Made by a program: the position numbers and the translations under genes. The notes below the pieces were generated by a model. That model ran no database searches. It saw only the letters and a list, made by a program, of their open reading frames with translations, and had not been told where the DNA came from. Below, piece after piece: positions 30,188 to 33,811 of a stretch of DNA of 64,000 nucleotides (the stretch's first letter is position 1; every line of letters begins with the position of its first letter). The stretch is from Candidatus Thorarchaeota archaeon (GTDB lineage Archaea; Asgardarchaeota; Thorarchaeia; Thorarchaeales; Thorarchaeaceae). The stretch is taken from positions 49,313-113,312 of the forward strand of contig RDNZ01000005.1 of the NCBI GenBank assembly GCA_011364905.1, in the 5' to 3' direction.

Positions 30188-32017
30188 CTATTCGGATTCC
30201 GTTTCGTCATCGTTGGAATCCAGAAGTTTATCGAGTTCTGCGAGTGTTTCTCCATTAAGCGGAAGATATGGAGTATCTTCATCCTCTTCTTCATCCGCAG
30301 TGGTTTTGGATTCGGCTGTCCCTGTACCACCTACCGAGCGATCTAGGGGCCCCAGAAAAGCCTCAAGCTCTTCAAGAGATTCAGCATCTATCTCACTGGG
30401 TTCCTCAGGTTCATGCAAGAAGGGAATAGTTTCATCACTCCCAATTGCCTGAAGCGCTGTGTCAAGGTCCTCGTCAGAAGCATGGTCAATCTCCTGCGCA
30501 ATCATATTGTCAAAATCATCTGCTTCAAGAGCTTCAAAGATGATGTCTTTGGCCATCTGTGCTGCATCCGTAATTTCTTCCACGAGAGCAGGGCCTAGGT
30601 CTTCAGAAGCTACAACGGTGGTTTCCATATCAAGCTCTATTGGTTCATGCTCTTGCACAGATTCAATTGCGGGTCCGGACTCTGGCTCTTGTTCAATTTG
30701 GATGGCTATTTCTTCTGTGGCATCGCCTATTAGAGCCTCTATCTCAATTTCCTCTTCTAACATTGGCTCTTCTACCTCCTCAGCCTCTGTCACTTCAGAT
30801 TCCAATTGAGCGGCTTCGACCTCAGGTTCCACTAGTGATGCTTCGGCCTCCTCAGCAGGTGTTTCTTCAATCTCTGCGGGTTCTTCCTCTACTTCGAACT
30901 CCTCTTCTACTATCTCCTCTTCCCCTTCCTCGATAATCTCATATTCCTCAAGATTCTCGATTACGTGGCCTTCTTCATCAACATAGACTTCTTCGTATTC
31001 TTCTGCCTCTTCGTATTCTTCTTCAGCTTCTGCCTTTTCCACCTCGACCATCTCTGCGTGTGAAGTTTCAGCTATGGCCTCTTCAGTAGCGGCTTCTGTA
31101 AACTTAAGCAGTTCCGAGGCTGGTAGGTCAGGCAGGGCGACTCCCACATATTGGGCAGCAGCATTCATGAGGATTCGAAGCATTTCATCTCGGCGTTCTT
31201 TGTCAATGGCCACCATTGGATAGGTGGGTATTCCCAGCACCTTTTGGACCACCTCAGGTTTCATCGCATTTGGTTTGTCCTGTTTATTCGCCATGGCAAA
31301 GACTGGGACCTTAGGAGCATCCCTTTTGATCAGTTTCAATATGTCCTTACTAATGATGACATTCCTCAGCGTAGAGTCACACACTAGAAAGATGACATCG
31401 GCACCATGAAAATAAAATCGCCATAAAGTTCTGAAACGCTCTTGCCCTGCAAAGTCCCACAGAACCAGAGAGTAATTACCAAATCGAATATTCTCAACAG
31501 TTTCCAGATTCAAAGCGATTGTAGGCACATATTGAAGGGGGGGAGTGTCACCAAGGAGCAAATGCAGTGTGGTTGTTTTACCAACACCTCCTTCCCCAAC
31601 CAAAGCGATCTTGAGACGAGTAGTCACAGATGGTTCAATTAGAATTGCATAATTCTTTACAGCGCCTTCAATGCCCTCCTTTTTGAACTTCGTTCGGAGA
31701 GCTTTGAGAGCCAAATCAATTTTCTCGAATGTACTGCCTTCGTCTTCACCCTTATCGGTAACAAAGACCAGAACTGAGTCCTCTATCCAATCTTTCCCGA
31801 GAAACTTATGGTCACCAACCACCAAGGGCAATTCTGAAACTTGACCGGGTTCCGTTCTGAGCTCTTCTCTGGTTGAGATGAATTCATTCAGCTCATCTCT
31901 ATCCACATCAACAGGCCAGTATTGAGTCGCAGCGATTATCTGCCGCGTGGAAATGCGAACGAGGAAGGTGTTGTGGATCACTTCAATATCACCAGTTTCT
32001 ATCACATCAAGAGGCAA
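30188..32017 (-). CDS. Arf-like small GTPase with N-terminal alpha/beta domain and ~300-aa acidic tail
   Basis: GEGGVGKTT, PTIALN, WDFAGQERFRTLWRFYF, NKQD; the C-terminal half is extremely E/D-rich. Confidence 0.88.
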   Translation of the reverse strand: MPLDVIETGDIEVIHNTFLVRISTRQIIAATQYWPVDVDRDELNEFISTREELRTEPGQVSELPLVVGDHKFLGKDWIEDSVLVFVTDKGEDEGSTFEKIDLALKALRTKFKKEGIEGAVKNYAILIEPSVTTRLKIALVGEGGVGKTTTLHLLLGDTPPLQYVPTIALNLETVENIRFGNYSLVLWDFAGQERFRTLWRFYFHGADVIFLVCDSTLRNVIISKDILKLIKRDAPKVPVFAMANKQDKPNAMKPEVVQKVLGIPTYPMVAIDKERRDEMLRILMNAAAQYVGVALPDLPASELLKFTEAATEEAIAETSHAEMVEVEKAEAEEEYEEAEEYEEVYVDEEGHVIENLEEYEIIEEGEEEIVEEEFEVEEEPAEIEETPAEEAEASLVEPEVEAAQLESEVTEAEEVEEPMLEEEIEIEALIGDATEEIAIQIEQEPESGPAIESVQEHEPIELDMETTVVASEDLGPALVEEITDAAQMAKDIIFEALEADDFDNMIAQEIDHASDEDLDTALQAIGSDETIPFLHEPEEPSEIDAESLEELEAFLGPLDRSVGGTGTAESKTTADEEEDEDTPYLPLNGETLAELDKLLDSNDDETESE

Positions 32018-32119
32018 TGCCCAGAGGCCTTAACGCCAGTAGGTTAATTTCATTGAGTATAGATTAAGATGTCCCGTGTGTATATTTCGATATTCTGTAT
32101 ATCCATTCTTGGTATTAGA

Positions 32120-32388
32120 GAAGGAAAACGTTGGAGCGGCGGGTTCGCCGAGGCGAACCTTCCGCATCCGTGGAGCTCTTCGCAACAGGATGCATGGTAA
32201 AATCAAATTACATGCGCAAGACTGCCCAGTTATGGGCAATAGGGACCTAGAACTCACTTTGGGACCGTGTTTGCTGCGAGTTCCTGACGGGGGAAGCCAT
32301 GCAACCCTGTCATGAAGATTCACAGGTCCGAAGGGCAAAATACCATATGAAGCTTTCTAGGTTTTCAAAAGGCGTTTCTTAGTCGGAA
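32120..32388 (-). ncRNA. Candidate ~260-nt multi-helix non-coding RNA of unknown family
   Basis: At least seven helices within 32136-32329, an upstream TTTAATA box (32411-32417 on minus) and a terminal GC hairpin followed by a pyrimidine tract. Confidence 0.55.
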
Positions 32389-32506
32389 TTCACTGGAATT
32401 ATCGCAGTATTATTAAAGACTGATTGAGGAAATCGCAGAGGTTTGGAACATGCGTTTTCCATTTTAGTTTCAGCGAAGTATGAGTTATCAAATCCAGTGA
32501 TTGCAT

Positions 32507-33646
32507 TCAGCGCGGGAAGTTGTCTCTGAGTAATCGCAGGTGATGATGTACCATTTCCATCTGTTTTGGATCATCAGGTGTTTTCTCAAGGTCAGTGACG
32601 AGTGTTTGCAGGAAATACTCAGGGAAGAAGAGTCTGACACGGATGTCGTTCAAGAGGAACAACCATTTGTCGTAATCACCTGATGCACCCTTGCGTCGCT
32701 TCTCAGATATTATTCTGAACTTCTTGAGTGTCTGAATCGCAGACTTCAACTCTTTTGGTGGGATGGCGAGGGTCGCTTCTAGTTCAGAGATATTTACAGG
32801 TCTCCTTCGTAATTCACTAAGAGTATCATAGCAGTCAGGGTCTGCCAATACTTGTGCTACGGAAACAGTGTCTTCTGGGGTCTTCTGCCACTCTGTCAAG
32901 AACTCCAGAACTTCGGCTTTATATTCGGCAGCAAGCTCAGGGTCCAAAACACTGCTAGCGGCTTCCATGGCCACTAACGGCGGAGCTCGGAAAACCTCCA
33001 AATCCTTAATCATGAAGACACAGGTTCGACCAATCTCATCAACCCACTCTGTCTTTACAAGACCCAATTCTTCGAAGGGAGCGATTACAGAATCAACGCT
33101 TACACTTGGTAGTCCTGTAACCATCTTGAGCCACTCCTCAAGCTCCTCCTTAGAGATTCCGCCTTTCCAGAGCTTGGGAAAAACAGCTCGTGAAATCTCA
33201 TCAGAAAACAGTCGTGCTAAACGCGACTCATCAGTCATTCCTGCAAGCCGAATGATTCTGCGATAGGTATTGTCGAGCTCAACCTTCAGTTCAGCATCAG
33301 TCATGGCTACGACAGCGTTGGTGAGTGGCGTCACGATTGAGGTTATCGCGGCCTCGTAAGTCTTCGGATCCTCAGAAGGTGTGAGTAACAAGGAAACGCA
33401 ATACTGTTCCTCTTCTCTGACAATCCCTGTGTAATAAGAAGCCACACCATACTCTTCACCCCCAATTCTAACACTTAGTGATGAGAATCCAGCTGTGGCG
33501 TCACCCATAGCATGTGACGTGAAGATACGCATGATCTCCGTATTGAGATCCTCTCTGTAGTAGTCCGCAAAGTCCGCAGGAACTTTCGCCTTTAGGACAG
33601 CGCCAATCTTTGAGTCCCAGTCTATTAGCAGCATCGCAACGGGCAT
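32507..33646 (-). CDS. Longin/uDENN-like N-terminal domain protein with C-terminal winged-helix domains
   Basis: Longin-like start (LLIDWDSKIGAVLKAKVP...SYY...YCVSLLL...EDP..YE); two wHTH-like segments (ISKEELEEWL..APFEELGLVK; VNISELE..LKSAIQTLKKFRII). Confidence 0.6.
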   Translation of the reverse strand: MPVAMLLIDWDSKIGAVLKAKVPADFADYYREDLNTEIMRIFTSHAMGDATAGFSSLSVRIGGEEYGVASYYTGIVREEEQYCVSLLLTPSEDPKTYEAAITSIVTPLTNAVVAMTDAELKVELDNTYRRIIRLAGMTDESRLARLFSDEISRAVFPKLWKGGISKEELEEWLKMVTGLPSVSVDSVIAPFEELGLVKTEWVDEIGRTCVFMIKDLEVFRAPPLVAMEAASSVLDPELAAEYKAEVLEFLTEWQKTPEDTVSVAQVLADPDCYDTLSELRRRPVNISELEATLAIPPKELKSAIQTLKKFRIISEKRRKGASGDYDKWLFLLNDIRVRLFFPEYFLQTLVTDLEKTPDDPKQMEMVHHHLRLLRDNFPR

Positions 33647-33811
33647 TTTACTTCGCTCCCAGTCCCTGGAGTATGGTAAGTATAAAGCCAGATTATTATT
33701 TGATGCATGGGGCCAGCCTAAAAAACCTTGTCTTATTTGGCTCCGACTATTAGAAATATCGAACTGTTCAGCGCTTTTTAGATGGGCCTTTTTTAAGCCC
33801 GAAAAGTAGTT

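Follow-up and report, generated by a model that had tools for sequence, protein, structure and literature searches.

Base-pairing small RNAs that act through C-rich loops are known from the Firmicutes, with RsaE/RoxS and the UCCC loops of Staphylococcus RNAIII as examples. Short loop motifs are put to another use in the CsrB/RsmZ type of small RNA, in which repeated motifs make the molecule a sponge for protein. Comparative genomics has furthermore supplied Rfam with orphan structured ncRNA candidates of the Weinberg/Breaker type.

The element described here lies in a spacer of 490 nt within the window (i.e. the whole 64,000-nt stretch of Candidatus Thorarchaeota DNA that was analysed), and this spacer almost certainly holds a real RNA gene. 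As the best explanation of the whole we favour an independent minus-strand gene for a structured small RNA of about 200 nt that would regulate by base-pairing, a reading held with somewhat less than even confidence. Like the Firmicutes RNAs, the predicted product stands alone as a small RNA, ends in a terminator-like hairpin and carries several unpaired C-rich motifs complementary to G-rich sequences of ribosome-binding sites. It differs from them in having no sequence or structural homology and no Rfam match, in being about twice as long, archaeal and built around a multi-branched core that a long helix closes, in having predicted targets only, and in belonging to a host with an archaeal translation and RNA-chaperone apparatus. 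It shows at least two unpaired C-rich motifs in loops or junctions, which is one mark of the C-rich-loop RNAs, a functional class and not a homology family. With CsrB/RsmZ it shares short motifs repeated in exposed loops, but it has only two to three sites, another motif and no more than a candidate partner. Like the Weinberg/Breaker-type orphans it is defined by conservation and covariation alone and is tied to a gene neighbourhood; unlike them it matches none of the 4227 models of Rfam 15 and occurs in one Asgard family only.

The locus and its conserved neighbour

The spacer is flanked by two minus-strand genes (Table 1), and the RNA-bearing stretch is modestly G+C-rich relative to its flanks. 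The upstream gene encodes a 379-aa protein for which neither Pfam nor NCBIfam holds a family, and which is longin/winged-helix (wHTH)-like and part of an Asgard-wide family. Homologues occur in 214 of the 301 genomes of the phylum. The protein is 83–98% identical over all genera of the family to which the host belongs, 65% in the sister family and 30–38% elsewhere in the phylum, in genomes with up to six paralogues each, whereas the GTPase encoded downstream is 48–90% identical across the family. Judging from these identities, the constraint on the 379-aa protein is unusually strong for an uncharacterised protein.

Table 1. Coordinates of the RNA element, its candidate target box and the flanking genes (positions in the window)
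Feature	Position	Strand	Remarks
GGGACU-GGGAG box	33656..33666	minus	10–20 nt upstream of the 379-aa ATG; complementary to the GGUCCC motifs
379-aa gene	32507..33646	minus	upstream flank of the spacer
BRE/TATA-like box CTAGAAAG-C-TTCATATG	32345..32362	minus	conserved in nearly all homologues across genera
Proposed sRNA transcript	32323..32122	minus	202 nt; both ends uncertain by about 10–15 nt
Helix P3, 5' strand	32297..32321	minus	pairs with 32173–32197; many double changes across genera
C-rich junction CUUCCCCCGUC (GACGGGGGAAG on plus)	32286..32296	minus	unpaired in the MFE fold; CCCCGUC nearly invariant
Hairpin P5 (AACUC/GAGUU)	32251..32282	minus	100% paired in 69 homologues
Junction CUAGGUCCC	32242..32250	minus	unpaired; carries the second GGUCCC motif
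Hairpin P4 (UGCCC/GGGCA)	32223..32238	minus	sequence and length vary between genera
Invariant motif CUUGCGCA	32213..32220	minus	from homologue alignments
Helix P3, 3' strand	32173..32197	minus	pairs with 32297–32321; long, irregular
3' hairpin P1 (GGAUGCGG ... CCGCUCC, YNYG-type loop)	32133..32169	minus	91–97% of cells paired, double changes
CCAAC tail then U-rich run	32122..32132	minus	CCAAC conserved; U-rich in most, not all, genera
Arf/Roc-type GTPase gene	30188..~32008	minus	downstream flank of the spacer

The element is present in single copy in its own genome. Searches with blastn recovered it from 23 of 24 genomes of the genus at 76–95% identity, and with the covariance model R1 a single full-length copy was found in each of 70 family genomes out of 86, spread over 12 of the 16 genera. 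Unfiltered searches beside the 379-aa gene added family genomes that had been missed at first, one with a complete copy (39.9 bits) and several with divergent ones. Among the carriers are the Thorarchaeota MAGs SMTZ1-45, AB_25 and OWC in the public records. Beyond the family, one extra genome of the order gave no match, and neither did the surroundings of the 379-aa homologues in the sister family and nine other Asgard families; as far as these searches reach, the RNA is restricted to a single Asgard family (Thorarchaeota). Wherever it occurs, it lies just 3' of the 379-aa gene, 100–250 nt past the stop codon.

A covarying fold that displays C-rich motifs

The strings from which the initial annotation had drawn its helices are all present where it placed them, and comparison with the homologues separated those helices into two sets. 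Three of them covary in the relatives: the GGTTCGCC/GGCGAACC hairpin with its GCGG/CCGC extension, kept and covarying in about 70 homologues, became P1; TGCCCA/TGGGCA, trimmed to TGCCC/GGGCA, became P4, conserved and covarying in the same set; and GAACTC/GAGTTC, as AACTC/GAGTT, became P5, conserved with a compensatory variant. The remaining pairings are unconserved in relatives, namely GCATCC/GGATGC, GCATG/CATGC, the TGACGGGG/CCCTGTCA helix, the mutually exclusive fold through a second GGACCGTG copy, and the closing helix GGACCT/AGGTCC, whose 3' arm (32324–29) is genome-specific and lies upstream of the likely start. These helices give way to the covarying helix P3.

In model-fitted alignments of about 70 homologues, which lean towards the model and whose counts overstate independence because the homologues are kin, 38–39 of 47 pairs show changes on both sides, 88–89% of cells are paired (against 72–74% in column shuffles and 35–45% with slid partners), and the covariation score is 0.32–0.33, compared with 0.12–0.13 for shuffles and 0.03–0.05 for slides. 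P3 closes a conserved core with the hairpins P5 and P4, and P1 lies outside it. The inner part of P3 differs from genus to genus (CAUGG, GGCGG, GCACG, CGCAUG, ACACGG, GUACGG and CGCGCG), and the partner strand matches each version. The arms of P4 (32223–27 with 32234–38) carry double changes in all five pairs, with 91.9% of cells paired. The arms of P5 (32251–55 with 32278–82) enclose a loop of 18–22 nt that carries the invariant ACACGGUCCCA; the hairpin is invariant in sequence in most genera, and one divergent genus has AAACCUGU/ACAGGUUU in place of AAACUCG/CGAGUUU, a clean compensatory change. Additional structure occurs in places: other genera have an extra UUCG-capped branch within P1, and some members of the genus have a 17-nt hairpin inserted between P5 and the C-rich junction. 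These insertion sites are positions that a structured RNA tolerates.

The energetics agree with the comparison. Folded alone, the 202-nt minus-strand transcript has a minimum free energy of -78.1 kcal/mol (z -4.83), and its MFE fold is the comparative model; the whole stretch out-folds shuffled sequences on both strands, with z of -3.8 on minus and -3.2 on plus. Three C-rich segments are nearly invariant and are unpaired in the MFE fold and the comparative model alike: CCCCCGUC (within the CUUCCCCCGUC junction), ACGGUCCCA in the P5 loop, and CUAGGUCCC. Depending on the genus, there are two or three copies of the C-rich motif.

Several further structural candidates were set aside. An AUCCGU/ACGGGG pairing and a K-turn at CUGA/GAAGA displayed mixed or contradictory variation when inspected by eye, their sites lying at opposite ends of P3, and a pairing of UGCGCAAG with UUGCG of the P5 loop is not universal. 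A column-by-column covariation scan of a MAFFT alignment proved too noisy, because the variable helices were misaligned. The covarying helices, together with indels (1, 2, 6 and 17 nt), rule out a coding role for the small open reading frames of 79 and 102 aa that run over the element. In the divergent genus with the compensatory change in P5 (loci L134, L135 and L136) there is no separate P4, and UGUGCAAG directly joins GGGGACCAAUGC.

Relation to known RNA families

The absence of RNase P, SRP, C/D-box and tRNA signatures, remarked upon in the initial annotation, is borne out by cmscan against Rfam 15. With the 4227 models at gathering score, the whole window yielded only a tRNA elsewhere and no match on the element; at the same threshold there was no match in 20 distant homologous loci. 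Relaxing the search to E<=10 over 31900–32650 returned only SNORD110 (E=3) and adapt33_3 (E=7.2), both far under their gathering scores. The riboswitch, C/D and H/ACA sRNA, tRNA and RsaE families of Rfam 15 do not match the element either. The RNA belongs to no catalogued Rfam family, and a literature search retrieved neither a description of it nor a report of another structured, conserved small RNA from Thorarchaeota.

RNase P RNA and SRP RNA resemble the element in being single copy, 200–340 nt long, strongly structured and lineage-wide, and in having a long-range helix that closes a conserved core. Neither was found in the element's own assembly (95 contigs, 80.8% complete), and the element was therefore tested as a divergent form of either. 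It is matched neither by RF00373, the archaeal RNase P RNA with its conserved P4 pseudoknot core (threshold 84 bits), nor by RF01857, the archaeal SRP RNA with its helix 5/6/8 S domain. True genes are found in the relatives: RNase P RNA at 146–170 bits in 22 of 26 genomes of the genus, and SRP RNA, of about 310 nt, at 80–112 bits in 24 of 26, in both cases on contigs other than that of the element's homologue. The presence of both at separate loci rules out a divergent RNase P or SRP RNA, and the corresponding genes of the own genome probably lie in its unassembled parts. In one relative (G001:C7:28603-28942, 31249-31574) the RNase P RNA model matches twice above gathering score, at 157.5 and 110 bits, on the same strand and 2.3 kb apart, which may be a tandem duplicate.

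The RNA is a family-wide, single-copy molecule, well defined by covariation and missing from Rfam, and its covariance model constitutes a new RNA family with which Thorarchaeota genomes can be annotated.

A candidate target beside the 379-aa start codon

The proposed mechanism follows from the display of the C-rich motifs. P3 would close the core, so that P5, P4 and the junctions present three single-stranded C-rich motifs, and these would base-pair with G-rich sequences beside ribosome-binding sites. The longin/wHTH-like 379-aa gene has such a sequence, the GGGACY-GGAG box ahead of its start codon, and this is the first candidate target; by pairing there the RNA might tune how well the mRNA is translated or how stable it is, as the C-rich-loop RNAs of Firmicutes do. 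That the RNA is a base-pairing regulator whose targets include this neighbouring gene is a tentative proposal, and we consider it more doubtful than probable.

The box is a regular feature of the locus: GGGAC[CU] occurs at positions -18 to -21 in 62 of 76 loci, and GGAG adjoins it in 60 of these. Among the 2499 Shine–Dalgarno (SD)-led ORFs of the own genome, a crude set, GGGACY occurs no more than 35 nt from the start in only 28, and directly joined to GGAG in only three. The complementarity extends over 12 bp, taking in both the box and GGGA, in the second clade of the genus. RNA and box are both absent from a sister-family genome, and in one genome of the divergent genus that lacks a separate P4 both GGGACC motifs are mutated, to GGGAAUU and GGAACC, and the 379-aa gene has likewise lost its box. 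Other results speak against the pairing. Two genomes have kept the RNA motifs and have no box. By duplex energy the 379-aa leader takes only 364th place of 2499 with the best single motif, and 121st place when the best two are used. RNAs bind their own leaders no better than those of other genomes (-21.98 kcal/mol as against -21.67 kcal/mol for cross-genome pairs; permutation p 0.18). The 379-aa ATG is preceded by a conserved TATA-like CTTTATAC whose end is 33 nt away from it, so transcription of that gene may start downstream of the box, which would then be outside the mRNA.

The main rival to base-pairing is a protein-binding role. The RNA would then be a scaffold or sponge, with its repeated C-rich motifs (two or three of the GGUCCC type plus CCCCGUC) as protein sites, and the winged-helix 379-aa neighbour could be the partner, forming a particle with the RNA or entering into mutual titration. 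Repeated, nearly invariant motifs that covarying helices set in loops and junctions speak for such a role, and the variation in their copy number between genera, the strict linkage to the extremely conserved 379-aa gene and the lack of clade-specific co-variation between RNA and leader fit it as well. However, sequence searches of Pfam, NCBIfam and PDB detected no RNA-binding domain in the 379-aa protein, and the exact complementarity between the motifs and the GGGACY box would have to be due to chance, at odds of about 1 in 100. On balance we regard a scaffold or sponge as unlikely, though worth keeping in mind.

A broader proposition would make the RNA part of a 'eukaryote-like' GTPase-regulatory module of Asgard archaea, either as its dedicated riboregulator or as an RNA subunit, with GGUCCC loops that act on the mRNA of the longin/winged-helix gene or bind its protein. 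This is a speculative and rather unlikely extension. If true, the neighbouring longin-Arf GTPase would work with a GATOR/NPRL2-like regulator whose level or activity is set by the RNA, and RNA-level control would be built into a proto-eukaryotic small-GTPase switch. Because the RNA adjoins the ultra-conserved longin/winged-helix gene and, usually, the Arf-like GTPase, it offers a testable entry point into the regulation of the GTPase module.

Putative promoter, terminator and ends of the transcript

A small RNA of the C-rich-loop class would have a promoter and a terminator of its own. The 5' end of the proposed transcript was placed by promoter spacing and the 3' end by the U-run, which gives an RNA of about 200 nt in place of the roughly 260 nt estimated initially. 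The BRE/TATA-like box, which was compared with the TATA boxes of RNase P, SRP and tRNA genes of the genus, ends 24 nt ahead of the first base of P3, and we infer that it acts as the promoter of the RNA, with transcription starting about 24 nt downstream. The TTTAATA box at 32411–17, to which the initial annotation had pointed, is unconserved. Transcription would stop at about 32122, past the stable 3' hairpin and the CCAAC/U-rich tail, which is a probable termination site. The arrangement that had been noticed from the single sequence, with the strongest hairpin last and a U-rich tail after it, is seen again in the comparison of about 70 homologues; the U-run 3' of P1 is weak or absent in some genera. 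Between the TATA box and P3 a mini-hairpin of 3 bp can be drawn, but it is too weak to count.

An origin by processing, wholly or partly, from the 3' UTR of the 379-aa mRNA would dispense with a promoter of its own. The RNA does lie on the same strand as the 379-aa gene, always at a short distance past its stop codon, and the spacer between them holds conserved motifs. The sequence ATCGCAG (on the minus strand CUGCGAU) occurs there twice, at 32401–32407 and 32432–32438; the copies, about 30 nt apart and conserved in the genus, sit between the 379-aa stop codon and the sRNA promoter box and could serve a regulator as binding sites or belong to a 3'-UTR element. Such an origin is nevertheless improbable, given that a BRE/TATA-like box stands family-wide at a suitable spacing ahead of the first helix and that the stretch between box and helix is poorly conserved.

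A gene in its own right is also what was first suggested: one of the two identities proposed at the outset was a stand-alone novel ncRNA, and a single-copy, family-wide element with covarying helices, no Rfam match and its own promoter-like box corresponds well to it.

Assignment of the strand

The RNA very probably lies on the minus strand, which was also the strand of the TTTAATA box and the last, strongest hairpin in the initial annotation; helix energies, G.U/A.C counts and mirrored models agree on it. P1 is more stable on minus in 60 of 67 homologues and P3 in 57 of 67, by about 4 kcal/mol each. Over 44 internal pairs, the minus strand has 190 G.U and 60 A.C oppositions with 92.8% paired, the plus strand 81 G.U and 148 A.C with 88.3% paired. 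The mirrored covariance models R2 (plus) and R3 (minus) were built from the same 12 sequences with the same pairs, and the minus model scores higher for most non-seed genera. On these three grounds the plus-strand model was dropped.

That model had envisaged a functional transcript of about 250 nt on the plus strand, running from the P1 hairpin to CAUAUGAAGCUUUCUAGG and containing a pseudoknot between GGGACCUAGAA in the core and UUUCUAGGUUUU at the 3' end. Complementarity between these segments extends over 7–11 bp with G.U pairs valid on plus only, one genome has a matching GGAC/GUCC extension, and three helix-terminal G.U pairs fit plus. The G-rich core alone also folds better on plus, although this is expected from its G-richness alone. 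Set against this, the internal pairs of the covarying helices speak for minus by about 3 to 1, the energies of P1 and P3 do so in about 60 of 67 homologues, and the mirrored model scores prefer minus as well. The conserved motif that was supposed to form the plus-strand 3' end is a BRE/TATA-like box when read on minus, at the right distance for a minus-strand start. The 250-nt RNA with its CUAGAA/UUUCUAG pseudoknot was accordingly rejected on wobble counts, energies and mirrored models, and we regard a plus-strand transcript as very improbable.

The downstream GTPase gene

The remaining alternative, a cis-acting leader or attenuator of the Arf-like GTPase in which a sensor domain precedes a terminator hairpin, echoes the switchable attenuator of a GTPase signalling locus first proposed, and it could appeal to the position of the RNA on the same strand directly upstream of the GTPase gene in most genomes and to its terminal hairpin and U-tail; yet it is largely refuted by synteny and must be considered extremely unlikely, since in loci of at least four genera, and also in one genome from the genus of the host, a convergent, opposite-strand gene of 300–420 aa splits the RNA from the GTPase or the GTPase is not nearby, a conserved block read as the GTPase promoter intervenes, the alternative pairings on which a switch would depend are unconserved, and no riboswitch family matches.

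The block in question spans 45 nt (32061–32105) between the RNA and the GTPase start, carries a TATA-like AAATATACA on the minus strand and is read as the GTPase gene's own promoter. The GTPase leader (region 32005–32105) also has a small AGGC/GCCT hairpin. Alignment with relatives suggests that the GTPase starts at the GTG at 32008 (MIETGD...) and not at the TTG at 32017 chosen by the ORF finder.
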